Translations under genes and position numbers: made by a program
Shown here: piece by piece, positions 1,418 through 19,061 of the stretch
How positions within the stretch are numbered: the first letter of the stretch is position 1
Layout: the number at the start of each line of letters is the position of its first letter
Notes under the pieces: model-generated
Told to the model about the DNA's origin: nothing
Seen by the model: only the letters and a program-made list of their open reading frames with translations
The model's database searches: none
DNA from: Balamuthia mandrillaris
Lineage: Eukaryota
Direction of reading: 5' to 3'
DNA length: 20,000 bases
Assembly (NCBI GenBank): GCA_031835245.2
Contig: JAVKOQ020000083.1
Coordinates: 170,402 to 190,401 of the forward strand

Positions 1418-4400
1418 TTAGCCTTCTTGTTCTCGTTCTTCAGCTTCCTGTTTGTTTCAACAAGAGGAAAGGAAGGAAAGAAAGAAAGGAGAGATGTAAG
1501 CAAAATAGCAAAGAGAAGTGGCGACAGAGAAAAGGAATGGTTCACTCTTGTCTCAAAGGTAAGGATGTAGCGAGGAAGACTTTGTGCTGGCTCGAAAATG
1601 ATGAGCTCGTTTCCCTTTGGGGAGTAGTGACTATCATAGCCATCTTGTTTGCCTGTCCCATCCTTTGTATTTTATATTAATAATCATCCATGCCTAAAGT
1701 AAAACTAAAAAGTAAACATAATCTTCAATGCTTACCATACGTTCAGTGCATCGGTAGGATCGGCCACGAATAACTTTGGTGAGGAGGATCTGGTCTGATT
1801 CTCGCTCCTCCGAATACCATAACGCATAGTCCGAATATACAGAAAAGTAAATGCCTTTACCAAAATATCTTCGTGTTTAAACACCAAGATGGAGAGAGAG
1901 CGAGAGAGAGAGAGAGAGAGAGAGCGTTAGAAATAAAGAAAAGGGAAACGAGAACCGAGTAAAGAGAAAAGAAGAGACTAAGCGACAAATAGCACTAACC
2001 CATCATCAAGCACTGTGATATCAGGAACTTTCTTTTGGGTTTTCTTCTTCTTCGACTTTTTGTTAGTCTGGTCTTGACTGGGCAGCTTATCTGGCGGCAA
2101 GAAACCTGTTTTTGAGATACCAATCATGCTATTTCGTGTCGACCCATGCTACAAAGAGATGAGAGAAGAGTGTAATGTTAGATAGAAAGAAAAAGAGAAC
2201 AAGGCAAGAGAGGAAATGACTTACAAAACCCCAAACTTCGTTTATGTCTTTGCCTGCTGATAAAAAATCTGCCTTTTTCTCTTCATACTGTTGTTTCAAA
2301 TCTAGATTATTTAATTGTTAAAAAAAGAGAATTGAGTAAGGAGTAAATGAAAGAGAATGCAACAAAAAAGAAGTGGCTGCTACAAACCTCTGTTTACAAT
2401 AACCCAAACCTTTAAAGCAAAGAAAATTTTGTCAGCGAACAAAAGAAGAATAAAAGGAAGGAAGGAAGGAAGGAAGGAAGGAAGGAAGGAAGGAAGGAAG
2501 GAAGGAAGGAAGGAAGGAAGGAAGGAAGGAAGGAAGGAAGGAAGGAAGGAAGGAAGGAAGGAAGGAAGGAAGGAAGGAAGGAAGGAAGGAAGGAAGGAAG
2601 GAAGGAAGGAAGGAAGGAAGGAAGGAAGGAAGGAAGGAAGGAAGGAAGGAAGGAAGGAAGGAAGAGGAAGGAAGGAAGGAAGGAAGGAAGGAGGAAGGAA
2701 GGAAGGAAGGAAGGAAGGAAGGAAGGAAGGAAGGAAGGAAGGAAGGAAGGAAGGAAGGAAGGAAGGAAGGAAGGAAGGAAGGAAGGAAGGAAGGAAGGAG
2801 GAGTAGTACAAGAAGAAGAAGAAGAAGAAGAAGAAGAAGAAGAACAAGAACAAGAACAAGAACAAGAACAAGAACAAGAAGAAGAAGAACAAGAAGAAGA
2901 AGAAGAAGAACAAGAACAAGAACAAGAACAAGAAGAAGAACAAGAAGAAGAACAAGAACAAGAACAAGAACAAGAACAAGAACAAGAACAAGAACAAGAA
3001 GAAGAAGAAGAAGAAGAAGAAGAAGAAGAACAAGAGGGAGGAGGAGGAGAAGAAGAACATCAACAACAACAACAAGAAGAAGGAGAAGGGACAACAAGTT
3101 GAATGAACAAAAAGTTACCTCGGAAATCTGATAATTGGCTTGCGCTTTGGACATAGTCTGGTAGAAATGTGAAACGGCTTTGGAGAAGCAGTTCTCCTGT
3201 TGTTGAGTCATTTTAGAACCCTTTTTGAGCTTGATGATACCATAACCGTTTTCACTCTGCAGAATGTCATGCTCTTCATCCAACTCTACTGTATCATCTC
3301 TCTGTTTTGGTTTATATTCAGTTGTTACGTTGCAAAACAGAAGAGGAAAGACGCAAAAAGAAAGAAAAAGAAGGAGAAAAAGAGTAAAAGAAAGATAGGA
3401 AAAAAATAAATGAAAAAGAGTACCCGCTCTCCATCTTCGTATTGTTCTTCAGTCCACCCAAACTCGCTCAATACTTGAAGATGTTCCTGTTGCGAGATAC
3501 TGTAGGTCCGCCGGAAGCCACGCAATAGTTGTTTCTCGGCTGCCGTGATCTTGTTCTTCTGCACAGTTACTCGTACAATGCTGCGGCTGTTGATGGCGTT
3601 TTAAAAGAAAGAGGATGTAAGAAGCAAGGGAAGGATCAAAAACAAGAAGAGGAAGGAGAAGCAGAAGAAGAACAAGAACAAGAAAAAGAACTAAAGGAAG
3701 GAGGAAAGGAAAGGAGGAGAAGAAGAAGGAGGAGCATACAAGAAGAAGAAGAAGAAGAAGAAGAAGAAGAAGAAGAAGAAGAAGAAGAACAAGAAGAACA
3801 AGAAGAACAAGAAGAAGAAGCAGAAGAACAAGAAGAAGAACAATAACAACAAACAACAAACAACGTACTAATTATCAACCTCGGGTCGAGAAGCAGGAGC
3901 AGGGGGTGCAGCAGAAGCAGTAGCCGTGTTCGAATTCGACGAAGAAGGCATGGCCGAGGAAGGGGACGGAGAGGAGGAGGACGAGGTCACGTCCACCGAA
4001 GAAGAAGAAGTTTTGTTGTTGTCCTCATCCGACTCCACCTTGCGTTTTTTGGATTTGGAGGAGGTGGCCTTGGTCTGTTTTTTCTCCGGTACAAGGTGAG
4101 GATGCCGAAACTCTTTAAAGTGTTGTGGATTCTTTTTTTTTTGTTTTTACAAAAGCAAAATACGATCAAAAGATTAGATTCGCGATTCGATTCGATTCGA
4201 TGTAAAACAAACAAACAGCAAAAAAAAATTGATGGGACAAACGACGTACCTTTCGGTAACATTTGCTGCCATACCAACATACAGGTCGGTCATCGTCCTC
4301 TTCCTCCTCCTCCTCCTCTTCTTCCTCAGTTGGACTGTGTGCTTCTTCGTCGCTGTCCTGTTTCTTCTTCGTCTTTTGTTCCTCCTCCTCCTCTGCCTTT

Positions 4401-4591
4401 CTTTTCTTCGAGCTCTCTGTGGTGGTCGCCGCATCGTCGTAGTTGTTGTTGTTACCATTACCATTATTATTATTCGCAGCGGGGGGTTGGGCCTGCACGG
4501 GCGCAGCCGCACTAACGCTCGCAGAAGCTGCAGAGGCGGCAGCCTCGGAAGAAGGCGGCGTGGCGGCTTTGTGGGCACGGCGTGGCGGCAT
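1418..4591 (-). CDS. PBZ zinc finger + ENT/TerB-like helical domain + PARP-like ADP-ribosyltransferase catalytic domain (~492 aa); exons 4591-4250, 4131-3869, 3586-3424, 3301-3119, 2409-2388, 2301-2225, 2148-2000, 1868-1736, 1662-1546, 1447-1418
   Basis: PBZ: RPVCWYGSKCYRKNPQHFKEFRHP. ART motifs: EVWGFHGS, GYFGKGIYFSVYSDYALWYS, GYDSHYSPKGNELIIFEPAQSLPRYILTF. The exons sum to 1479 nt, in frame, with GT-AG junctions. The last 30-nt exon is less certain. Confidence 0.88.
2455..2799. repeat. (GAAG)n tetranucleotide microsatellite, intronic
   Basis: About 340 bp of near-perfect GAAG inside PARP-gene intron 2410-3118. Confidence 0.97.
2808..3080. repeat. (GAA)n/(GAACAA)n compound microsatellite, intronic
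   Basis: Directly visible, in the same intron as the GAAG tract. Confidence 0.95.
3640..3862. repeat. GAA-rich low-complexity tract, intronic
   Basis: (GAA)n run inside PARP-gene intron 3587-3868. Confidence 0.9.
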
Positions 4592-5194
4592 CTCTCTGTG
4601 TCTAAGATCTTTTTAAACAAATAAATTTTTTTGCTGCGGACAAAATTTTTCCTGGAACGATTTCTCAAAGAATGTAAAGCACGCCAACAATGCAAGGTGG
4701 GCTCCTATGGGCCAGGTTCTTTGATGGGATGCTTCCGCCGCTTGAAGCAGCGACACACCCAATGCTGTCCCACTCAAAACACTGAAACACGCGTAAATGG
4801 CCCTTACAAACAAAACAACCAAAAGCAAAAAACGGACACAGACCTCAACTTTTCCCTGCTCTCCAACGTTGCCATAACCCCTGACCTGGGAGTCTATATC
4901 TGATTAGATCCGCTTGTTTGGACGAAGCGGGCGGGTGGGGAAATGAGGGGGCCTTCTTCATGAACGTCTGGCTTGGTTGGGTTTGGTCAGCAAAACTTCA
5001 TGCAAGGGGTCCATGCTTCTTCCCACAGAGACCATAGGGGGTCGGTCACCCGTTGGAGGTATGGGAAAGGAAGGGATATCTACGAGGTTGAGCCTTGGCA
5101 AGCCTTTAAACGATTAAAAGAAAACGGTTCGCCGAACTTAGCATATACCGGTGTGCCCAAGACCTGTGAGCGCTCCTTAACCTCAAACCTTGAG

Positions 5195-5810
5195 ATGAAC
5201 CGCAACAAAGTTTATCTGTTGTGGATTGTGTGCGCTGTTGTTTGTGCCGTCGTGCCAGGCGGCAGGGCTGCAAACCAATGCAGCAGCTCAGCGGTGGCAA
5301 GAACCACGGCCACCACCGTCGTTGAGGGTGGTTGCAAGGGAGCTTTCACTTTCGGATATGGTTTGTTGCTGCTTTTGTTGGAATTGTATTTCTAGAGTTC
5401 TTGGTTTGTTTTTAATGCTAACAGCTACATTAAAGCGGAGGATGTACAAAGCAGGCTTGAAGCAAGCGGCTTCGGATCCAGCGCCAGTGGATATGGTTTG
5501 TTATCTGTTCATGTTGTGTTTCCTGTCTTGTGTTATTTATTCATTCTTTGCACCTCGTTGGCCCTGTACTTAATTATCGTTTGTAGTTGGTGTTGGAACA
5601 ATTGTAGCGTCCGGAACAGGGTCTCACGCCTCTGGTTATGGTACGTTCTGGGGTGCAGCAGCTCGCCATCTTCGATTGTTTAAACGGATTGTTGTTTCGT
5701 ATCAAAGTGGACATTGACGGTGAGATTACGGCTTCATTTGATGGGAGCGTAGCCATGGGTTACGGTAAAACCTTCTCTTTTTGTTCTCTTTGCTCTCCTC
5801 CCAATCTCCC

Positions 5811-5845
<35 letters not shown>

Positions 5846-6901
5846 CTCTTTCCCTCTCGCAAGCTGCACCTTGCTTTTATCATTTTGGATTACTGTTTGT
5901 TCTCCATCTCTCGTTTGCAAACAACAATCGGAAAGGGGTGGCTGATGCAGCAGCCAATTTATCTGTTTGTTTTCTTTCTTGCAGGTGATGAAGATGGCGA
6001 AATCATATCCACGGGACAAGGCAGTTTTGCATTGGGCTTTGGTACGTATGGTGTCCATTGGTGGAACCCCAACGCATTATTGTTGATTGTTCTTCCTTTC
6101 CTGAAGCTGATGACGACAGCGAAATCGAATCCACGGGACAAGGCAGTTTTGCATTGGGGTATGGTACGTATGGTGTCCATTGGTTTCACCCCAAAGACAA
6201 GTTCTTATTTACTGTTATTTCTTCTCTGTCCCTGAAGTGGATGACGGCAGCGAGATAGCATCCACGGGAGAAGGCACTTTTGCGTTCGGCTCTGGTATGT
6301 ATGGTGTCCATTGGCTTCATCCCAAGGTAAAGTTTTGCATTATTGTTGATCCTTCTCTCTTTCCTGAAGCTGATGAAGACAGCGAGATAGCATCCACGGG
6401 AGAAGGCACTTTTGCGTTGGGCTTTTGTGCGTATTCCCTCTTCAAACCCAACGCAGCATCACAAGGCAAAAGAGCGAAAAAGAACATACTAACCGATTCA
6501 CGTTGTGTGCAGCACTCAATGGCAGCTCCATCACTTCTACTGGCCATGGATCGTTTGCCGTGGGTGATGGTATGCTACCTAGCCTGCCTCCCGTCTCCCT
6601 CCTCTTGTGGACCCTAACTCTCCTCCGCTTTCTCTCTATCTCTCTCCTTCTCTTCCTTTGCACATGCAGCTGACTTTAATAGTAACATCACTTCTACTGG
6701 CTGGGGTTCTTTTGCCATGGGTGACAGTACGGCAGTCCTTGATCTTTTTTTCTCCTTGGCGACAAGCGCATAACTTTGATGTTCTCCACAGCATTTGATG
6801 ATGGTACGCTTGCTGCAACCGACGATGGAGCCTTCGTCTTGGGATATGGTTAGTTTCTCTTCTAATCCTTTCTAGTTCTGCATGTATTGTGTTGTAGTCT
6901 A

Positions 6902-6970
<69 letters not shown>

Positions 6971-7447
6971 ACGTCATTGTTAAATAAATCACATTGAACA
7001 GCTGAAGAAAGTTCCTCGCTGAGGTCGAACGGCGAGGGGTCCATTGCTATGGGAAAAGGTTTTATCCTCACATGGTTCGACTGACATCCGTGAGTCTTTC
7101 TTTCTCACCACACACTCGCTTCATAGCCTCAGACAACGGACTCATTGAATCACAATCTGATGGGTCTGTAGCACATGGGTTTGGTACTGTGACATGACTG
7201 TCTCTTAGTTACCTATTGTTGTGATTGATGTCCTCTCCAACCACCGTCCCTTCTCTCTCTCTCTCTCTCTCCCTCTCCCTCTCTCCTCTCTCGTCTGCGA
7301 TCACAGCGGTAAATTCCAGTTCAATTGTTGCAGTCGAAGCAGGGTCATTTGCTGCTGGCATTGGTACATAGGCGTTGTTTCTTCTTTGCTCCTTTTCATT
7401 CAGTGCTCCTTCTTATTACTTCTCTTGCTCTCTCCCTCCCTCTCTCC

Positions 7448-7495
<48 letters not shown>

Positions 7496-8544
7496 GTGTT
7501 CGACTCAGCGGACGCAAATTCTGGTATTACTGCTGAATCCATCGGGTCTATTGCCATGGGTGCAGGTACCTCACTCTTACTCTTTCTTCTTTTTTCTATC
7601 TAGCACCAAAGGTTTTGTGCCAAACTAACTCCAATTACCCAACAGCACAGGAGAACGGAGTTATCGTTGCCAAGGCTCCAGGGGCATTTGCCACCGGGTT
7701 TGGTTTGTCAATTCTGTTTTCTGTTTGGTGATAGTCACAGCAATGGAGTTCTCCTTCACCTAATCCCCGTTCTTTTTGTCCTGTATGTTGTGGATTCTTC
7801 TGCTTGCTCATCATCATCATCTTCTTCTTCTGGCTTAATGTTCTCCTTCTTGTTCTTCTACGTTGATTATTTTGTGTTGTACTCGATTTCTTTATAGCTG
7901 TATGGAATGGAACAATCAGAGCAACCGATGTAGGTGCTCATGCCTCTGGAGTGGGTAAACCTTTTCATCCCTTTGTTTTGATACCTGAACAACTGGAGCT
8001 CCTTGCTGATGCTAGAACATGACACCACACAAACCAAAATGAATAAAAAGCCTTTGGTGGCAACAGCGTTGCCGCAACAGCGCCTGGATCCTTTGCCCAC
8101 GGAATCAACATCCGGACCTCTACCATCGGCGGCATGGTGGCAGGCAGGTGCAACAACCCTACTGACGAGGCGAGCCTTGGCACCGGAGAGGCAGTTTTCG
8201 CGGTAGGAGTTGGGGACCCCAACCCGTTAACAGGGTTATGTGACTCGTCCTTTACAGGGATGATGCTGGACTCGAATGGCGATCTCTTCCTGAAGGGCGA
8301 CATCTTCTTGCAAGGCACCGTTTCTGACAGCCAGACCCTCAACCTGAGAAGCAGTGATGGAAGCCAACAATCACCAGTGTCTTTGTCCCTATCTTTGATC
8401 TCCTCCAGAGAGAAAATGGCTGCTTTGGAAGCCGAACTGAAGGACGCTCGTCAACAACTGGCAACCACTCGTGCGGAAGTAGAAGAGCTGAAGCTGTTGG
8501 TTAAGTCTCTGTTGCAGAAAGAGGCGCCTCAGAGTCAGGAGTAG
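5195..8544 (+). CDS. Secreted repeat protein with YadA-head/tail-fibre-like beta-roll repeats and a C-terminal coiled coil (~523 aa); 18 exons: 5195-5360, 5436-5495, 5587-5640, 5708-5764, 5985-6041, 6107-6163, 6238-6294, 6370-6426, 6513-6569, 6670-6726, 6792-6848, 7002-7058, 7127-7183, 7307-7363, 7509-7565, 7646-7702, 7898-7954, 8051-8544
   Basis: The N-terminus is signal-peptide-like (MNRNKVYLLWIVCAVVCAVVPGGRA). All 17 introns are GT-AG and phase 1. Each internal exon encodes one repeat, e.g. DEDGEIISTGQGSFALGF, DFNSNITSTGWGSFAMGD, QENGVIVAKAPGAFATGF. The exons total 1572 nt in frame, ending at TAG 8542-8544. The fold assignment is inference from the [ST/A]xGxG[SA]xAxG pattern. Confidence 0.88.
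5985..6426 (+). repeat. Four tandemly duplicated exon(+intron) units, period ~122-132 bp
   Basis: The exons share atccacggga(c/g)aaggca(g/c)ttttgc. Introns 6042-6106, 6164-6237 and 6295-6369 all start gta(c/t)gtatggtgtccattgg and end cctgaag. Confidence 0.92.
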
Positions 8545-8677: not shown

Positions 8678-9032
8678 TTAACATACTTCAAAGGCAGGCA
8701 TGCAAGCCAACTTCAAGCTGGACAACATGTCGGACCAAAGCACAGCAGCACTTGCATAACTTCCAACAAAAAACATGAAAGGAGAGGGTTCCGGTTTCCT
8801 CATCACCTCCGGATCCGACATTATCGCATGAGAGAGGGCGTACTCTTGAAAGCGGATTGCTTGATAGAGGTACTTGGGATCCTTGGTCATGCGGTACATG
8901 TAAAGAAACATATAGGTGTTGCCGCTTACTCCATGTCCCAACATTAGTCCTTTGGTTAGCAATCCTCTTTTCCAAACTGCCTCAGCTGCTCTCTTTGCTA
9001 ACAGAAAACATGAGAAGGGAAAAGAGACAGAA

Positions 9033-9098
<66 letters not shown>

Positions 9099-10586
9099 AC
9101 CAGCATTTAAATAACGGTGGTCGTTGTAAAGAATCCATGCTTTTGTAAAGAGAGGTATATAGCCAGGAGCGCCATGACACCACTGCAGAAGCACATCTGG
9201 TTCTTCTGGAAGAGGAGGAACAGTCGGAGTAGGAAAGTTGCCATTGGGCAACTGTAATGTTAGCAAAAAGTCGAGTGTGCTGCGAATGAGGTTTGATACA
9301 GTGGCATTGGCCATGAACTTAGAAAGATGCATCATTTGGAACAAGACACCAGATGTGCCATGGCCTTGGTCATATAGCACGACATCTTTTGGAAAAGAAC
9401 ACCATAATACATAAGGAAGCAGCATAGAAAGTAAGAACGAACAAGTGAACATATGAAAGAATGTAAGAATAAAAGAAAAGACCGAATGGATACGCGCTTA
9501 CCTGGATAAGCAACATTACGCCACTTCAACACGGTCCCGTTTCCTGTCCGAACTCCAGCACTCAACATAGAGTGTGCCAACTCGTTCAACCACTCTGCTG
9601 GGATGACATAAGGAGCTCCATCTCTTTTACCTCCAAAGTGATCATTCAAGAAGTAAGCAGCAAAGAGGAGCCCGGCTTTGCCTTCATCAAAGGGGTCAGG
9701 AAAGGCTCGTTTCCCTTTCAGCACTTCCTTAAAGGTGGCTAACACTCTGGAGATGTATGTTTGGCTCTTTGGAGCGTCTCCAAGTAGGTCGTATATCACA
9801 GCAGCCACGGAGTAAGGGCCTACAGCAGAGTACATGAAACCAACCATTTGATTTTTTTCAGCAGAGTTATCCTTCTCAACAGCCTTTTGTAGACTAGTCA
9901 GTAACAAAGAAATAAAGAGAAGAATAAAGAGAAAGTTGAACCTGAAGAGAAGAGTTGACGTAACGAGCAGCAATGGCAAGAAAAGACTTAGCTTGTTGTT
10001 CATCCCGTTCAACACTATTTTTGTACAAGTGAAGAAATAAAAGAGCTCTGCCTATACTTCAACCGTTGTGTCAGTGGTAACAAGAATTCATCTGAAGAAT
10101 AAGCCGAAGAAGAAGAAGAAAGACGAAGAAGAAAGAAAGAAAGAAAGAAAGAAACGACAAGAAAGAAACGACAAGAAAGAAACAACAAAAAACGACAAGA
10201 GAAATGGACTTACCGGCGCTTCCAGACATTACATCCCACCCATCCGCAAAGTCACTCTCAGGAGGAGCGCCTTGCAGGATGAGCTCCAGGTATTGGCTGC
10301 CTCGAACGCTCATGTTGCGACGCAACTCCTCAGAGATGAACACGGGGTCACCCGGACGATAGTCCGGCATGTCGTTGACGTAGAACCGAGGACAAGGAGG
10401 GCCGACATGTTGCGGGCACGAAGTGTTGTCGCTCCTACCTTTATGGCTATAACGGTCGCGCTCGCTCTCTCCAAGTTGGGAGAAATGCTCCAAAGCTCTG
10501 CTGTGTTGCAGCACAAACGCCAAGAGAAGCTGAAAAGCAAAGACAACGAGCAGACCCCAGTAAAAGCACCCAGGAGTGGGTTTCAT
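8678..10586 (-). CDS. LanC-like (LANCL family) protein with N-terminal signal peptide/anchor (~489 aa); exons 10586-10214, 10051-9942, 9883-9502, 9385-9101, 8997-8678
   Basis: LanCL motifs: RFYVNDMPDY, SGSAGRALLFLHLY, GPYSVAAVIY, DEGKAGLLFA, GHGTSGV, PNGNFP, LLQWCHGAPG, VWKRGLLTKGLMLGHGVSGNTYMFL, MPAFE. The exon 2/3 junction is the least certain. Confidence 0.9.
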
Positions 10587-10840: not shown

Positions 10841-13669
10841 ATGGCATCGCGCAGGCTGAGCGGCTGGACGCTGAGCATACCCTCTGCCACCACCAACCCT
10901 GATTATACGGTTCGTTTTTTTTTTTGGTTGTTTGGATATTATCATATATTTTATTTATTTATTTTGTTTTGGGACCATCCTCTCCCTCTTCCATTTTATT
11001 GATACAATCCGCCACCTTGAACGTAACTTTTGGGTTGCTCATCAACAAAAAAAGGTCTACAACATATTCATCAGTGATGGCGTCTCCTCATGGGCAGTTC
11101 CCAAACGTTTCAGCGCTCTGCATGACTTTAAATCGATGGTGTGCTGGTTTTTCTTTCACCCCTATTTTTTTTTGTCTTTCGTTCTTTCTCATCATTTCTT
11201 TCTTCACGTCTTCTCGACCCCATCGTCCATCAGATGGAAGAAAAGTATCCTCGTAAACGGTTCCCACCGTTTCCGCCAAAGAAGCTCTTCGGCTCGAACG
11301 ACCCTGACACCGTGGAGGAGCGCAGGAGAGAGCTGGAGGGCTTTCTGAAGGGCCTGTTGGCCGACTCTGGCTTTCACTGCAAGTACATGCTTCGTTTCCT
11401 GGATCCGCACCACCAAGTACGTTTCTTGCTTCTTGCGTTGTTCTTTCCTCTCTTCTCTCTTCCGTCCACCTCTGCTTCGCTCTCTTCTCCCTTTGTCCTT
11501 GCTGCTTGCTTCTTGCTTCTTGCTTCTTGCTTCTTGCTTCTTGCTTTTTTCTAGCCTCTAATTGCTCCATTGTGACTACAGTCAAACCAAGAGTCAAGTA
11601 TGGACAGAGCCACGTATAGCCACCTACTAGCCATGCAACAAGCAGAGGAAGAGGAAAGAGCAAAGCAAGAGTCGTATGAACAATACAGACAGGACAAATA
11701 CAAAGAGGGAGAGGCACAACAAGAGTCGGACTATGAGGAAGCGGACTCTTATAACTTTTTGCTGCCACCGTTAGTCTTGAACCCACGCGAAGAAGGCTTA
11801 CCAGACGCTATAACGTTGGCCAACGGAGAAACCTGCTATTTGGCAGCATTGTTGGATGACATGCGCACCAATGTGCTCTATTTGCATCATCTTCGACAGC
11901 GATTGGATCGTTGCAGTGGCGACTCTGCTCGCTTAGGCATTCTTGCAGAGCAACGACAGAAGCTTTCGAGCACTTGCGCGGCTGTACGACGAGAAATAGA
12001 CCTCATTCTTCCTTCTTCTTCCATTTCGTCCACTCCGTCATCATTACTAGGAAAAGTAGAGCAGTTGCGATGGGAAAAGGAGCAGTTACAACAACGAACG
12101 CATCGAAGAAGGCCTAACCCTGAGATTCGTTCATTGAGAGGAGCGGCGACGGCGATGAAGAAGTTGCACACGTGGTTGCTGAGAGCAAGAGAGCAGATGA
12201 GCATAGCTCTTCAATGGGCAGAGAGCGCGGAGGAGTCCATCCTGTTGTCTGTTAGCGGTGAAGAAGAAGGAGGTTCCTCCGGGAAGGAAGAGGAGCATCA
12301 TGAACAAGAATTAAATGTAGCGGATCACAACACTTGCCTCGTGGACTTGGACTATAACAGCAACAATGTTAACACCAGCGCATTTCTTCCTCCTCCTGCT
12401 TACTATCACTACATGCCACCACCGATGTATACATCACCATACCCTCCTCCCGCTTATGTTCCATCTCCTCCTCCTTCTTCCTTCTCTTCAACTTCGTCGT
12501 CGTCTGATGTTCCACCATCAACTTCACAACTGCAGCAACAACCTACGTTTGTTCATGCGCCTTTCTATCCAGCACAACATCCGATGATGTTGATGGTGCC
12601 TTCACAAACTGCTTATCCACCTACCGCCACCAATGTTGAGTTGCCTCTTTCCTCCTCCTCTGCTTCATCTTCTTCTTTCACTTTGTCGTCTCCTGCAATC
12701 TTGCCAGCTTCCCTCCTGCCTCCTCCTTATACTAATGTTACTCCTACCTCTTCTTCTCCTACTCTCCCTGATCCATCACTTCAGCCAAATACCGATTCCG
12801 CTATCATTACTCTTCCTCAAGACATAAACCACTCTTCACCGCAACAACCACAACAACAGGTTTCCGCTTCTTCCTCTTCCTTCTCCGAGCCTCTGTTCCC
12901 TCAACCAAAACATCAACAAGATGACTTAGGCCAAGCTCTCCGGTCTCTGGAAGCGGAAGCCGAGCAGTTGGTTCTTGAAGCTATCCGACAACAACAAGAA
13001 GAAGCTGACTCCTCTTCCTCCTCTGCTGCCTCTTCATCCTCTGCATCTCTTCAGGTAGAAGGACAAGTCAGACTGTTCAAAGAGAAAGTGAGACAACTGC
13101 AACTCTCTGTACGAGCTCGTTTTTCCTCCACAGAGGAAGCTCGTCTCGTCCATCAGCGCATCGATGAGATAGCCAGTTATCTCAATGACAACCTCAACTT
13201 TCTTCAAAGCCTTCGCAACGGCCAAACTGCATCGCTCTCTCCACAAGACCAACTTTGTGTGTTTGAGGATCAGGTCTTTCGTCTTCTTCATGATGCAAAT
13301 CTTCTGGAGGAGCGAAGCAAAGCCCAAAACAGCAACGAGGAGAGAAATCATGAGGCTGAAGTGGCGCAGCTGCACCGAAGAATTGTCGCGTTGATGAAGC
13401 AGATGGTGGCTTATTGCTCCATGTTGCAAAAGCAAACTCAACAACAGCAACAACAGAGGCGGGGTGATGATGACGGCGGAAGAGGTTGGCTGATGGACCG
13501 CTTGGAGGACCTGCAGGAAAACTTGGTGGACTTTGAACATAACTTTTGCACCAAGTTCCACGTACAGAAGAGCCTCGGGGATAAGGCGAGAGCTATTTTC
13601 ACCGAGCGGAAGTTGAAGGAGGCCATTCTCCTTCATGAAGCTGCTGCTTCTGATATGTTTGAACTGTAA
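10841..13669 (+). CDS. PX (phox homology) domain protein with Pro/Ser-rich PPxY region and helical C-terminus (~807 aa); exons 10841-10909, 11055-11138, 11234-11416, 11582-13669
   Basis: The spliced N-terminus YTVYNIFISDGVSSWAVPKRFSALHDFKSMMEEKYPRKRFPPFPPKKLFGSNDPDTVEERRRELEGFLKGLL matches the PX signature (KRFS, PPFPPK, EERRxxLExFL). It joins in frame to the 689-aa ORF. Confidence 0.88.
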
Positions 13670-13823: not shown

Positions 13824-14408
13824 TTAGGGAGAAGAAGAAGGAGAAGAAGAAGAAGAAGAAGAAGAACAAGAAGAAGAAGAAGAAGAAGAAGAAGAAGGAG
13901 GAGAAGAAGGAGAAGAGGATGATGAAGACGGACAAGCCTCGCTCATTGAAGATGACGAAGGCCTAGGAGAAACTATCTCATCCCCAGCCGTCGGCTCCTC
14001 CATTGCGAACGAGTATGTCCAGACCTGGAGGGCCGCCCGTCTCTGGCCGAGGAACAGGGTAACATTGCCGGCGAGCAGACTAAAAGTGCAAGGGCGGGTC
14101 GTGTAAGCCTGTAGGTGATCCTCCATGGGGAAGCACAGGCGCGAACTCATGCTCTCATCCACGAAGAACGTCATGACAACCTTGGTGCCGCCTCGTAAAC
14201 GAGGCAGGTGGGGGTGCAACTCACCAGGCCATTCCGAGTTTTGCCAGTCCTCCCCCTGCATGGTTAAGGTTGCGCTGGATTGCAGCGGGATTGCTGGGCA
14301 CATGGGGTTGGGAGTATCTGGGAGTTCCACCACAAGAAAAACGCTCCGGACTCTGCTCAACCAAGAAAGATCTGGGGTAGTGGTCGCGAGGCACAACTTT
14401 CTTTCCAT
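13824..14408 (-). CDS. Hypothetical protein (~194 aa), intronless, paralogue of 15190-15669, poly-Ser tail
   Basis: Shares PxLRGxTKVxMTFFxDExMxxRxCxPxxxHL, TFS and EPTxGDEI with its neighbour. The start (ATG 14408) is inferred. Confidence 0.7.
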   Translation of the reverse strand: MERKLCLATTTPDLSWLSRVRSVFLVVELPDTPNPMCPAIPLQSSATLTMQGEDWQNSEWPGELHPHLPRLRGGTKVVMTFFVDESMSSRLCFPMEDHLQAYTTRPCTFSLLAGNVTLFLGQRRAALQVWTYSFAMEEPTAGDEIVSPRPSSSSMSEACPSSSSSSPSSPPSSSSSSSSSCSSSSSSSSPSSSP

Positions 14409-15022
14409 TCGGTTCACCAACTGTTCTGCTTGGCTTCTGTGAGGCTTGTGTTTGTTCCTCCCTCCTTTGCTCTTTGGGCGTTGCTTTTTTTTTTTGTGGT
14501 TTGTGCGAAGCCTGAGAGATATGGACGTTTGTTTGGTTAACACACCTGTGGCGGCCGCAGTTTGTTGTGCAGCTGTCGGAGCTGTTCGTTTGGCCGGCAG
14601 GAGGGCGCTTCGGCAGCAGCATTTCCTACATGACCGAAAAGAAATGGTGGCGGGGAAAATTAGTGTCGACGAGGACCGCACAGCCAAACCAAACACATAA
14701 CGCTACGTTTTTTTTTTTTTTTTGATTGCTAAGAGCAGACGAAGAAGATAAACGTTATTTTTCATTCTTTTTTTTTTTTTTTTTTGATTGTTTAGAGGTG
14801 GAAATTTCTTTTAGAAAATCCGCAAAGTTTCCGCTCAACTTACCCACGTCGACAAAAATTTGCTTTTGTGTTTTGTTTGAAAAAAAAAAGGCAATAACTT
14901 GGACAGAACAACAACAGGTAGGCTATGGAGATGACGGGGTAGATTTCCTACGCAAAGGAGACAAAGGAGGCGTGGGAGGTGAAGAAGACGATGTTGATGA
15001 CGGAGACGGCGTTGACGAAGCA

Positions 15023-15186
15023 GACGAAGTGGACGAAGTGGTGGTATACGGAGGAGAAGAAGGGGAGGAAGGAGACGAAGAAGACGAAGTCGATGACGGA
15101 GAGGACGTTGACGAAGTGGACGAAGTGGTGGTATACGGAGTAGACAAAGGCGAAGAAGGGGAGGAAGGAGACGAAGAAGACGAAGT
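15023..15186. repeat. Imperfect direct repeat (two copies, ~87-96 bp apart) encoding a Ser/Pro/Thr-rich unit on the minus strand
   Basis: gacgaagtggacgaagtggtggtatacggag and gaaggggaggaaggagacgaagaagacgaagt each occur twice. Confidence 0.85.
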
Positions 15187-15189
15187 TGC

Positions 15190-15669
15190 CTAAGGGGACG
15201 GAGTACGCGAGGCAGACGAAGTAGACGGAGATATCTCATCCCCGCTTGTTGGTTCCTTGTCAAACTCCATGGTAGTCGGCTCATGTACGGATATGTCCAC
15301 GAGGTTTTGATGAAGCTTTACGGTTAAACCATCAAACCTGCAGCTGAAAGTAGCGCTGTTTAGTAAGGGCTTTAGATGTATCTGAATGGGGTAGCAGTTT
15401 CGTGTCCTCATATTCTCGTCCTCGAAGAAGGTCATGATGACCTTGGTTTGGCCACGAAGTTGCGGCGGTTGTTGATACAGCGTGCCACGCCACCTCAGGC
15501 CAACCTTGGTTAAGACCGCACTTATTTGCAATGAGTCGGGAGAGTAGATTGTATCGTGTATCTCTGGGAACTCCATACACAAACAAAAAAGTCGAGGCGT
15601 TGGCCAGCCAAGACGTATCATAGGCATAAGCAGCGCTGGTTGAAGTCGTCGAGCTTTCCATGCTCTCAT
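15190..15669 (-). CDS. Hypothetical protein (~159 aa), intronless, paralogue of 13824-14408; the frame stays open past its TAG to 14923
   Basis: PPQLRGQTKVIMTFFEDENMRTRNCYPIQIHL...EPTSGDEISP aligns with its neighbour. The start (ATG 15669) is inferred. Confidence 0.68.
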   Translation of the reverse strand: MRAWKARRLQPALLMPMIRLGWPTPRLFCLCMEFPEIHDTIYSPDSLQISAVLTKVGLRWRGTLYQQPPQLRGQTKVIMTFFEDENMRTRNCYPIQIHLKPLLNSATFSCRFDGLTVKLHQNLVDISVHEPTTMEFDKEPTSGDEISPSTSSASRTPSP

Positions 15670-15848
15670 CGTGTTGGTTGCGTTGAAGTGGGAGGGGTGG
15701 GGTGGTAGTGTGCGTGGCGGTGCTTGTTGTGCGTTTGCTGCAGGGAGGGAGGACAGAAAGACCAAAAAAAAAAAAAAGGTGCTACGTTTTTTTGCTACGT
15801 TTTTTTTTTTCAAAAAAAAAAACAAAGTTCGCACACATCGTCGGTTGG

Positions 15849-17544
15849 TCAGGCCACAGGGTCAGCGGCGTAGTGCGCAATGGAAGGAGAGCGATAGCCA
15901 TCCTCTCTCCACGTGATCGGGAAGAAGGTCTCCTCCATTTCGGTCTTCCCGTGCATCTTATATCTGCCATAAATGTACTGTACCCAGTTTTGTTTAAAAG
16001 TTAAAACGAGTGTTGAAGAGGAGAGAGAGACGTGGTTAGTTAGAGAGAAAAGGGTGAGATAGAGAGAGAGAATCGTACGCCAACATTGTCTGGCTTGAAT
16101 CGACAGTCGTGACGGATGGCATGAACTGCCAAGCTCCTGCGTATTCTGTCCTTGCTCACGTTTTTACCGGAACCATGCCACAACCTTCCATCCTTGTTGT
16201 TTGTTGTCGAAGGTCAATGATAAGTTACAATAGATAGGAAAGAAGAACGAACATGAAAAGCACATCCACCAATGGGTACTTCCACAGAGACAATGTCTGG
16301 TTGTGCGCCAGAGGCAGCAGCCGCTTTCCTAAGTGCTCTTTGATAGTCCACACTGGTGAAAAAGTCTTTCATGATGCCGCTTTCATCGTCGGCATTGTTG
16401 TTATTTGTTGTTGTCGGCTTCCAAAGATGAGAGCCTCGGGCGTATTGCAGAGTGCCTGCCTCTTCTGTGGTGTCGTCTAATGCTATCCAACATGTCACCA
16501 CTTCATTGGCCTTTAAGAAGCAGAGATGATGGTGAGAGAAGATATCAAGAAAGCAGAAGCTGAAGAAGAAGAAGAAGAACAAGAACAAGAACAAGAACAA
16601 GAAGAACAAGAACAAGACGAAGAAGAAGCAGCAAGAAGCAAAAGTAGAAGCAGAAGAAGCATAAAGACTAACTGGTTCAAGAAAGTCGAAGTAAGGAGAA
16701 TCTTGGTGGAAAGCGACAGCAGCGGTGCCTGGTGGCTTCCACCTGCATATCATTCCGCATAAGCAAGAAGTACTAAAACAGAAAGAAAAGAATAAAGAAA
16801 GAAGAGCAAAAGCCAAAAAGGAAGAGAAGAGAAGAGAGAAGGAGGAGAGGGAGAAAAGGGATGGCAACCAGACGTCATCTTGGGCGATGCGCGTGCCCTG
16901 CCAGCCCATCAGTTGGGAGATGATGCGGCCAAGCCTCTCCGACAGGACAACGCTGGCTATCGTCGTATCGCTTTTCCACTGTCACCCCATCGCAAAAATA
17001 AATAAATATATAAATAAATAAAATAAAATAAAATAAAATAAAATAAAATAAAATAAAATAAAAATAAATAAATAGATAAAATAACATTAAATAACATTAA
17101 ATAAAATAAAACTAAACAAAAATACAAAAAATAATAAATAAATAAACAAAACGTACATACAGCGTTAACGATCTCGCGCGTAACGTCGTCCCTGCTCATG
17201 CCCTTACGCCAGTGCCACTCGTCGGGGTAAACGCCGGTGTCAAACTCGCCGGCAAACAGCGGCTCCACCTTGGCCTGAAGCCGCAAGGCCAGCCGCCGGT
17301 CCAGCAGCTCGGGCAGCACCAAGAAGCCCTCCCTGCGGAACCGCTCCCTCTGCTCGTTGCTCAGCATTCCATTATGCTTTTGGCTGCTGCTGCTGGTGGT
17401 GGAATAGAAATGGCTGCAAAGTGAGGAAGAAGAGGAGGATGAAGATGGGTTGGAAAAGAAGGAAGGAAGGTAAGGTTTTTTAGTCCAGGTGGGTCTGAAG
17501 GCCTTCAGCAGCCCTCCTCTTCCCATCTGCGCAGTGCTGTGCAT
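15849..17544 (-). CDS. Phytanoyl-CoA dioxygenase (PhyH) family Fe(II)/2OG oxygenase with probable mitochondrial transit peptide (~354 aa); exons 17544-17161, 16978-16869, 16742-16673, 16510-16253, 16192-16079, 15977-15849
   Basis: Motifs LSNEQRERFRREGFLVL, KPPGTAAVAFHQDSPY (HxD), VTCWIALDDTTEEAGTLQYARGSHLW, GGCAFHDGRLWHGSGKN (distal His) and RRSLAVH. The exons total 1065 nt in frame. The N-terminus is Ser/Arg/Lys-rich and lacks acidic residues. Confidence 0.92.
16995..17150. repeat. (TAAAA)n/(TAAA)n AT-rich microsatellite, intronic
   Basis: Visible inside PhyH intron 16979-17160. Confidence 0.9.
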
Positions 17545-17573
17545 CTCTTTTCACTTTGTATTAAATGCAATTC

Positions 17574-17634
17574 TTTCATGACGACATGAATATTTGTTCG
17601 TGACGACGTGAACAAATTTCGTGTCGTCATGAAA
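17574..17634. promoter_or_regulatory. Imperfect palindrome with three GACGACRYG motifs in the 122-bp divergent PhyH/ASCC1 promoter
   Basis: The left arm tttcatgacgacatgaatatttgttc (17574-17599) pairs with gaacaaatttcgtgtcgtcatgaaa (17610-17634). Motifs lie at 17580, 17602 and 17620 (reverse). Confidence 0.6.
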
Positions 17635-17666
17635 AGACCCAAAGAAGAAAAGATAAAGACGAAGAA

Positions 17667-19061
17667 ATGGAAGATTACAGCCACGAGGAAGGGATCACCC
17701 TGGTCACGGTGCACGGCAGGACCTTTCGTAAAGCCAAGGTAGACCGTCCGCTCAGCTCGACGCGTCGTCGTAGGGTCTCTGCACCATCATCAACCTCCAC
17801 AACAGCAAACAAAAAGCAAGCCGAAGAGGAACCACGCTTTGAACAAGATGAACCCGTTTGCAGCGCTCTGCCTCCCTCTGCCAACCTCATCGAAGAAGAA
17901 CAGATGATGGTCGACACGGCAGAAGGGGAAGAGGACGCGCTCCCCATCGAACAGGAACCTGACTCTGGGCTCTGCGTGCTGCGCCTGCCCTTGGCGCCCG
18001 CCTTCTACCCGTTCCTCATCGGCAAGGGCGGCCAGATGCGCAGCAAGCTGCAGAGCGACACCGGCACCACCCTCCTCATCCCTCGCCAGGGTGCAGCCCC
18101 GCACCAACAGCAGGTGGTCATCCGCGGTCCCTCCCGGCAGGCCGTGCGCTCGGCCCACAGCCGCATCGAGATCCTCTGCCAGCAGGCCCTGGAGAGGCTC
18201 CCCTATACCCACTTCCTGTCCATCCCTTTGACGACGGATGCGGAGCTCCTCCAGGGCGTGCGCCAGTTTTGTCGGCAACTGCTGCAGGAGGAGCAGCAGG
18301 GCCAGCGGCGTGGCCTGGAGGAGTCCATCCTGGTGGACCCCGCCAAGCTGCATTTGACCCTCCTCATGCTGAAGCTCTACAGCGAGAGGGAGGTGGAGAG
18401 GGCCAAGGAGCTGTTGAGGGGCTGCGCCGCGGCGGTATACGACGTGGTGGGCACGACCTCCCTGAGGGTGGCGCTGACGGGCCTGGAGATGATGAACGAT
18501 GACCCCAGCAGGGTGGATGTGGTGTACATGGGTGTGAAGGAGTTGCAGGAGCCACCGCGATTGCCTGCCGTTTGTAGTTACGTCTCTCTCTCTCTCTCTT
18601 GCGGGTTAACCAACAAACTTTAACAAACATAATATCTATAGAATATCTGCAGAAAGAGTTTTCAAAGGCTGGCCTCATATCAGAGGCTGAGATGCGTCCC
18701 GTAAAGGTTCGTCTTTTCAACAAGAACACAGGCTAATACATAAAGAGACACTGACACAGCATAACATGCACAGCTGCATGCCACGCTTATCAACACGCGG
18801 CTAAGAACACAAGCCGAAGACGGAGGAGAGGAAGAGTCCACCTCAAGTAGACAACAACAAAGAGGAGGAAGAGGCGGAGCAGGAAGAGGAGGAAGCAGAG
18901 ACCAGGAGGAACGGATCCCAATCGATGCCACCCAGCTGCTCAGCCGTCACTCCTCACGAAGCTTTGGCGAGATCAAACTGAGCGGCATTCATCTCTCCCA
19001 ACGGGGAAAGTTTGACGCCTCTGGCTACTACCACTCTATTACTTCCATCTCTTTTCCTTGA
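17667..19061 (+). CDS. ASCC1: Activating signal cointegrator 1 complex subunit 1-like (KH domain + 2H phosphoesterase/AKAP7-like domain, ~420 aa); exons 17667-18576, 18642-18706, 18774-19061
   Basis: KH motif FLIGKGGQMRSKLQSDTGT; also YTHFLSIPL, MMNDDP and GIHLSQRGKFDASGYY. Two HxT motifs: KLHLTLLML and KLHATLIN. Confidence 0.9.

Follow-up and report, generated by a model that had tools for sequence, protein, structure and literature searches.

Genes in which single repeats of a solenoid protein are carried by single exons have been described in brown algae, where each LRR of the ROCO LRR genes occupies one exon of 72 nt in phase 2, exon shuffling alters the arrays, and there are reports of both splice variants and diversifying selection (PMC11378527). 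Schistosome micro-exon genes (MEGs), to which the earlier note had likened the gene analyzed here, have symmetric exons of 3–81 nt set between long introns and give rise to splice variants (PMC4350168; bioRxiv 10.1101/2023.06.21.545858). For Balamuthia mandrillaris itself, a preprint puts the number of introns per transcript at 4.7 and their mean length at 113 nt, and it describes the most spliced gene of the species, T2T133g112675, as one whose exons repeat, with 63 introns in all and a likeness to ice-nucleation repeats (bioRxiv 10.1101/2025.02.25.640156); that description is a single sentence and does not touch on family, phase, fold, or origin.

The present gene lies on the plus strand of a stretch of 20,000 nucleotides from B. 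mandrillaris (hereafter, the window). The organism is a free-living, brain-infecting amoeba whose infection is almost always fatal, and to our knowledge its surface proteins are poorly known. When spliced from the window sequence, the gene at 5195–8544 comprises 18 exons and 17 introns, all of which are GT..AG introns (17/17) in phase 1 (17/17) with lengths of 65–220 nt, and the joined exons make up 1,572 nt encoding 523 amino acids, with the sole stop codon at the end. The internal exons measure 60 and 54 nt, followed by 14 of 57 nt, and the intron number, phase, and exon lengths claimed in the earlier note were thus confirmed. Every intron interrupts the codon that follows the terminal G-x of a repeat with the 19-residue consensus A-D-x-x-[SG]-x-I-x-[SA]-T-G-x-G-S-F-A-x-G-x, and the spacing of the motif in the spliced protein is 19 residues in 14 of 17 cases and 14 residues in one of 17. 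The features, in window positions, are as follows.

5195–5360, plus strand: exon 1, 166 nt, with the start codon, a signal-peptide-like stretch, the N-cap with C29 and C47, and the end of the first repeat
5436–5495, plus strand: exon 2, 60 nt, a 20-residue repeat
5587–5640, plus strand: exon 3, 54 nt, an 18-residue repeat
5708–5764, plus strand: exon 4, 57 nt, a 19-residue repeat
5985–6041, 6107–6163, 6238–6294, and 6370–6426, plus strand: exons 5–8, 57 nt each, acidic repeats; recent tandem copies including introns 5–7
6513–6569 and 6670–6726, plus strand: exons 9 and 10, 57 nt each, with the sequons NGS and NIT
6792–6848, 7002–7058, and 7127–7183, plus strand: exons 11–13, 57 nt each
7307–7363, 7509–7565, and 7646–7702, plus strand: exons 14–16, 57 nt each; removal of introns 14 and 15 seen in RNA
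7703–7897, plus strand: intron 16, 195 nt; if retained, it brings a stop at residue 350
7898–7954, plus strand: exon 17, 57 nt, with the sequon NGT
8051–8544, plus strand: exon 18, with the last 19-residue repeat, one 14-residue turn, and the two-cysteine cap (C393 and C423), followed by a linker
within 8051–8544, plus strand: 3' part of exon 18, with the linker carrying a conserved arginine, the C-terminal coiled-coil heptads, and the stop codon

The ROCO LRR genes are a closer analogue of this layout than the schistosome MEGs. They share with it the allotment of one repeat to one exon at constant length and phase (here 14 × 57 nt plus 60 and 54 nt, phase 1) and the duplication of exons, which here involves exons 5–8 together with introns, whereas their products are LRR-ROC-COR GTPases and the Balamuthia protein is a predicted secreted beta-solenoid. 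The likeness to MEGs stood only in part: a human pathogen, mostly short symmetric exons (here 16 of 54–60 nt), and a secreted product (here predicted, with a signal-like start) are common to both, but the parallel is loose, since MEGs are defined by splice variants, none of which was seen here at a depth of ~4, and the present gene differs from them in its uniform exons, its short introns, and the coincidence of each exon with one structural repeat.

Within the 2.7-kb gene region there are 14 open phase-1 exons of the form AG-57 nt-GT with [AV]-x-G-x at their end, as against none in the remaining 16.5 kb of the plus strand and none on the entire minus strand. In 200 dinucleotide shuffles, 57-nt exons with this ending occurred with a mean of 0.03 and a maximum of 1, a test that is partly circular in that the end motif was derived from the same exons; when the motif was left out, 18 exons stood against a shuffle mean of 3.4 and a maximum of 9 (200 shuffles). 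Compared with the species averages quoted above, the number of introns is high while their size is normal. The exons of a LanC-like neighbor gene are ~280–380 nt long, as seen in an RNA contig, and exons of 57 nt are therefore not the local norm. For the last intron, an alternative acceptor at 8081 would also be in frame, but it loses one full repeat and conflicts with P0121, an NCBI-annotated B. mandrillaris protein in which the equivalents of exons 15–18 are joined identically, and 8051 was kept for this reason. The acceptor at 8051 is weak, yet it is used in P0121.

Concerning RNA, one contig from run X1 joins 7562 to 7643, a listed joint corresponding to the removal of intron 15, and also joins 7362 to 7508, corresponding to the removal of intron 14, where the short side comprises just 27 letters; no other letters are added at either joint. 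Both joints connect consecutive exons, and the spliced contig continues 120 nt into intron 16. RNA thus bears out two of the 17 junctions proposed from the DNA, that of intron 15 and, more weakly, that of intron 14, whereas the remaining 15 have no listed joint at the low read depth. The depth pattern of two X2 reads fits a join of exons 12 and 13, for which no joint is listed, and exon 18 is covered by an X1 contig at 8101–8258 and by a few X2 and X3 reads. Raw reads at least 95% alike at the locus numbered six in X2, four in X3, and none in X4, with 3–5 in 100 of each run's reads examined; these three runs were chosen by species label, X1 came from a small-share row of the run search, which listed no RNA holder, and reads matching a TCT run at 7795–7830, which were the majority and unrelated, were excluded. 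Expression is low in the four runs, with a contig depth of 4–5 over the gene versus 13.8 over the neighbor gene. No exon-skipping joint was listed in these runs, at a depth (~4) that is too low to exclude skipping.

How the array grew can be seen at exons 5–8, whose DNA is 73–87% identical in pairwise comparison, as against 66% for exons 9 and 10 and 33–57% for all other pairs. Introns 5, 6, and 7 are homologous to one another (z 10.0–11.5; one more pair reached 3.6 among the 136 pairs compared), alignment of the units of exons 5–8 reveals that the copied piece was an exon with its intron, and a tandem repeat was detected at 5967–6434. These observations are direct evidence that, at exons 5–8, tandem duplication is the source of the one-repeat-per-exon layout, and exons 9 and 10 likely represent an older duplication. 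The exon duplication envisaged in the earlier note is accordingly found with introns included, and the accompanying claim that any exon could be skipped without a frameshift holds for all 16 single-exon skips.

The last exon, used as a query against 1.84 billion representatives, had six matches, namely, four B. mandrillaris proteins, the run-derived P0125, and P0126 (E 6e-4), which was rejected as an unrelated repeat protein. The family members from B. mandrillaris are P0121, P0122, P0123, P0124, P0127, and P0134, and all family members share a cap in which two cysteines are invariant and an arginine, likewise invariant, ahead of the coiled coil. A search with last-exon fragments and of proteins of 287–2000 residues gave no record of the present gene copy; P0121 is 94.5% identical to residues 307–523 of the spliced protein, its last 217 residues. 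P0122, which consists of 2,919 residues and has a signal-like start, is composed of 11 cap-ended modules of 4–11 repeats each, and the one-intron-per-repeat rule of the window, when applied to it by hand count, predicts 57 introns. The layout of exon 1 is also found at the start of P0122 and P0134. Across the family, a rod holds 4 to 18 repeats, which agrees with the expectation of paralogues with differing repeat numbers. That gene finders would fragment such genes had also been anticipated, and indeed P0121 and P0123 are annotated as “partial” and P0134 and P0124, which have adjacent locus tags on one contig, are the front and back halves of one member. In P0134, a G-x immediately precedes each of the over-long repeats (26 and 37 residues, the only ones) as well as the aberrant end, and two of these irregular starts read G-E, which fits read-through of a G/GTGAG donor; as judged from the protein alone, the irregularities may be mis-called introns at the same site. 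From the one sentence of the preprint, T2T133g112675 is probably a relative in this family, and no Pfam match to the ice-nucleation repeat family was obtained for P0121, P0122, P0127, or P0134.

Relatives outside Balamuthia bear on the origin of the scaffold. Of 7,993 proteins scored with the last module of P0122 as the query, 22 matched. They comprise P0134, 14 proteins from metagenomes that have 18–20-residue repeats (P0131–P0133, P0135, P0136, P0138, P0140, P0143–P0145, and P0148–P0151), and seven in which a common linker accompanies YadA-head domains, six of these also carrying S74. The repeat period is therefore 18–20 in 14 of the 21 non-Balamuthia matches. Alignment of the 523-residue model with these 14 proteins spans 240–410 columns at 30–38% identity; for P0140 the values are 317 columns and 38% (E 2e-27, within a small local set). 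Eleven of the 14 also score at E below 0.01 with a profile built from the exons of the present gene. These metagenome and viral proteins have the same period and consensus, and the cap aligns with those of P0132, P0138, and P0140, as well as P0137, but they are encoded by single open frames without introns and have other end domains. P0133 was found on two IMG/VR viral contigs of about 150 kb; a PHROGs search of 17 L003 frames recognized no virion genes near it, so the label “tail fiber” is not warranted. Weak matches to phage depolymerase C-termini were found in P0131 and P0143, and some relatives are named trimeric autotransporter adhesin by a source. A profile of the cap matched four of 79 stored loci besides L001, with the best E of 1.4e-5 in a Bacteroidetes genome (2,174 targets), while the 19-residue repeat profile had no match in the stored bacterial loci; L001, from a metagenome scan, was rejected because its match runs antisense to a GntR-like frame and is due to chance. 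The linker motif that P0122 shares with bacterial YadA-head/S74 proteins occurs in 367 bacterial genome stretches, and the 77 loci kept are largely from Bacteroidota and Gemmatimonadota. In the Atlas, P0121 is nearest to S74/YadA-head clusters (score 0.94, 180/256 features). Neither tblastn of P0121 and P0122 against phages, nor viral scans with P0140 and A1, nor a genome scan with P0122 gave a relative. Because the repeat exists without introns, the match between exon and repeat most likely arose in the amoeba lineage. A bacterial or phage fiber gene is the likely source of the scaffold, the direction of transfer being suggested by these sequence relationships, and the bacterial-type scaffold assumed beforehand is upheld by the intron-free prokaryote-type repeat relatives, the cap match, and the S74/YadA-head likeness. 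Convergence is possible for repeats rich in Gly and Ala, and proteins of this kind are also present in other eukaryotes, as a mostly eukaryotic (haptophyte) cluster of the same type in the Atlas shows.

The protein begins with a hydrophobic N terminus (Kyte–Doolittle 19-residue mean of 1.97), in agreement with the signal-peptide-like start described earlier, and from its sequence is likely secreted. The N-glycosylation sequons reported in the repeats were located at residues 191, 213, 286, and 344, two cysteine pairs are present (C29/C47 in the N-cap and C393/C423 in the C-terminal cap), and 71% of the heptad a/d positions in the C-terminal coiled coil are hydrophobic. No C-terminal hydrophobic anchor was detected (Kyte–Doolittle maximum of 0.52), and surface display would therefore need a partner. 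AlphaFold2 predicted two strands per repeat in P0127 with pLDDT of 84–94 over residues 1–90 and, at lower confidence from a single sequence, the same two-strand pattern in P0140. The beta-solenoid with one turn per exon, which had been proposed from the repeats, is well supported by these predictions, made on the relatives P0127 and P0140. The best solved matches of the P0127 model are the heads of BpaC, YadA, and UspA1 (Z 11.8–12.3, rmsd 6.3–6.9, 120–139 residues), with ryegrass ice-binding protein at Z 11.7, curli CsgA at Z 10.9, and the right-handed helices of Vag8, TibA, and Ag43 within 1–2 Z of the YadA-type heads; the rmsd values of these matches are high and within the range that repeats reach by common arrangement. 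For the P0140 model, CsgA comes first (Z 23.0, rmsd 8.4), and TibA and tailspikes also lead. Pfam, NCBIfam, and PHROG contain no family that names the last exon or the paralogues, a sequence search of solved structures gave nothing better than E 0.4, and Foldseek against PDB and viral models gave nothing at E 0.001 or better. The Foldseek viral list is headed by giant-virus collagen-like proteins at E 0.02 and above, which is a lead at most.

Comparison with YadA (1p9h), BpaC (7o23), and UspA1 (3pr7) heads and with the families PF05658 and PF13884 reveals a Gly/Ala-rich two-strand repeat that ends in a 14-residue turn, a related cap, and a C-terminal coiled coil as common features. The protein resembles a YadA head or phage fiber but is not a trimeric autotransporter because the anchor, the 14-residue repeat, and the S74 domain are missing. 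Trimeric autotransporters have a C-terminal beta-barrel anchor, but here the C terminus encoded by the last exon is a hydrophilic coiled coil, and Pfam gave no match to an anchor family; the repeat is 19 residues long, unlike the 14-residue YadA head repeat, and neither YadA_head (PF05658) nor S74 (PF13884) has a Pfam match in the last exon or the six paralogues. The likeness to peptidase S74 fiber proteins is one of Atlas features, the S74 intramolecular chaperone domain being absent. Unlike bacterial fibers, the Balamuthia protein also has a eukaryotic signal-like peptide, sequons, and cysteine pairs. A binding role may be supposed by analogy with the YadA-head/phage-fiber relatives alone.

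We consider it somewhat more probable than otherwise that this is a real 18-exon gene for a 523-residue predicted beta-solenoid rod, likely secreted, likely trimeric, and likely binding, that its scaffold is likely bacterial or phage, and that the rod was lengthened by tandem copying of a one-repeat exon with its intron. After the transfer, a single phase-1 intron would have inserted directly downstream of one repeat's G-x, and repeated copying of that exon unit would have ended with a separate exon for every inner repeat. Unequal crossing-over might now add or remove whole turns while leaving frame and fold intact, whereas the coiled coil, the disulfide caps, and the repeats at the ends would stay fixed. 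The putative trimerization would be initiated by the coiled coil, a task that falls to the S74 chaperone and coil in the bacterial relatives. On this view, most of the diversity would be genomic, residing in paralogues and repeat number, and not derived from splicing. A fairly unlikely alternative is that the cassette exons are alternatively spliced so that one gene yields many rods, composing a variable receptor or antigen like the ROCO LRR genes or schistosome MEGs. The preservation of frame in every single skip agrees with this idea, as do the variation of the repeats in charge (0 to −5) and exposed positions, the differences from P0121 at 7 of 52 residues in three repeat exons versus 5 of 165 in the last exon (Fisher p 0.009), and the four amino-acid-changing and zero silent changes between exons 7 and 8, although pN is lower than pS in five of the six pairs of exons 5–8, and all these selection measures rest on few sequences. 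Moreover, duplication alone yields same-phase exons, and the two RNA joints are consecutive, with no skipping joint in the four runs of low depth. It is distinctly unlikely, in our estimation, that a captured phage or bacterial fiber gene was rebuilt as a splice-and-shuffle receptor family, in which exon skipping and exon exchange between paralogues would produce rods of varied length and binding surface as an amoebal variable-receptor/antigen system, with the self-cleaving chaperone replaced by a coiled coil cut at the conserved arginine by a host protease.

To a structural or nonspecific secreted solenoid, monomeric or polymeric, such as a cyst wall or matrix component or a curli- or ice-binding-like protein, whose exon pattern would be a neutral by-product of duplication, we attach a probability as small as that given to alternative splicing. 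The cap and coiled coil, which match those of fiber-type proteins, the relatives in viral contigs and among proteins named trimeric autotransporter adhesin, and the lack of a regular threonine array in the repeats all argue against such a protein, while its possible merits are that ryegrass ice-binding protein and CsgA score as well as, or nearly as well as, the YadA-type heads for P0127, that CsgA ranks first for P0140, that the low expression in the four runs fits a stage-specific product, and that the repeating-exon Balamuthia gene was likened to ice-nucleation repeats in the sentence from the preprint (bioRxiv 10.1101/2025.02.25.640156). It is highly improbable that the copy at this locus is decaying or almost silent, or that the chain of exons reflects a reading artefact: reads are few, intron 16 is kept in the spliced contig, and the searches mentioned above found no protein record of this copy, but the 523-residue frame is intact, the 17 introns are canonical, spliced joints exist, pN is lower than pS among the duplicated exons, and the 94.5% identical second copy, P0121, has the same junctions.

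The use of one exon per repeat with shuffling and splice variants is already known from the ROCO LRR genes (PMC11378527), and the novelty here lies in the scaffold, in its likely descent from a prokaryote or virus, and in a duplication step that can still be seen. In the open-access literature, searches combining Balamuthia with autotransporter, YadA, or ice nucleation gave no description of the family beyond the one sentence of the preprint, and PMC10471605 does not deal with exons, introns, adhesion, or YadA. The gene offers a clear example of a prokaryotic repeat scaffold, without introns and likely acquired by transfer, that would have taken on one exon per turn after its arrival, with the duplication step still visible at exons 5–8, and how introns come to match protein modules becomes directly testable. 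The findings also define an unnamed, mis-annotated family of likely secreted fiber proteins in B. mandrillaris, whose members are candidates for prey, substrate, or host binding and possible diagnostic antigens. Elsewhere in the window, a trehalose synthase exon at 794–1354 is 100% identical to a Balamuthia mandrillaris protein.

The arginine lying between the two-cysteine cap and the coiled coil of the fibre gene product is invariant in exon 18 (region 8345-8370) and in the paralogues, where it takes the form Arg-Arg. One possibility is that this invariant residue serves, in exon 18 and the paralogues, as a processing site in place of the self-cleavage carried out by the S74 chaperone domain of bacterial fibre proteins.

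Outside the window, the intron-free repeat protein P0133 (locus L003, 8001-11099) and its relatives constitute one family of proteins of 600-1,560 aa with 18-23-aa repeats, which sit in large viral or metagenome contigs and received no name from Pfam or PHROG. The run-derived protein P0125 (147 aa) has the same two-cysteine cap as the fibre-gene family, with 40% identity, and may indicate that this family is present in another organism.

The fibre gene shares the window with the following features.

109-1357, +: trehalose synthase (maltose alpha-D-glucosyltransferase) gene, with introns
2454-3082: long microsatellites, AAGG x 87, then ACAAGA x 38
4169-4612, -: PBZ zinc finger exon, in head-to-head orientation to the fibre gene
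8678-9877, -: gene of LanC-like type, arranged tail to tail relative to the fibre gene
10906-13669, +: PX-domain gene
13827-14702 and 15193-15861, -: tandem pair of frames that resemble each other
16217-17550, -: PhyH dioxygenase gene, head to head with the next
17604-18620, +: KH + AKAP7 2H-phosphoesterase gene, ASCC1-like

Among the matches listed, the relatives of the trehalose synthase are largely bacterial or metagenomic (41-56%), and the gene possibly represents an older gene transfer. Removal of two introns of the LanC-like gene was seen in sequencing run X1, and one of these removals also in the reads of run X2. The PX-domain gene includes a long exon of 690 aa in which no Pfam family was found. 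The tandem frames, neither of which has a Pfam match, are likely a duplicated gene; after each comes a repeat that is acidic or rich in Ser, with a 96-nt tandem at 14981-15186. Acidic low-complexity exons come after the PBZ zinc finger exon, towards position 3000.
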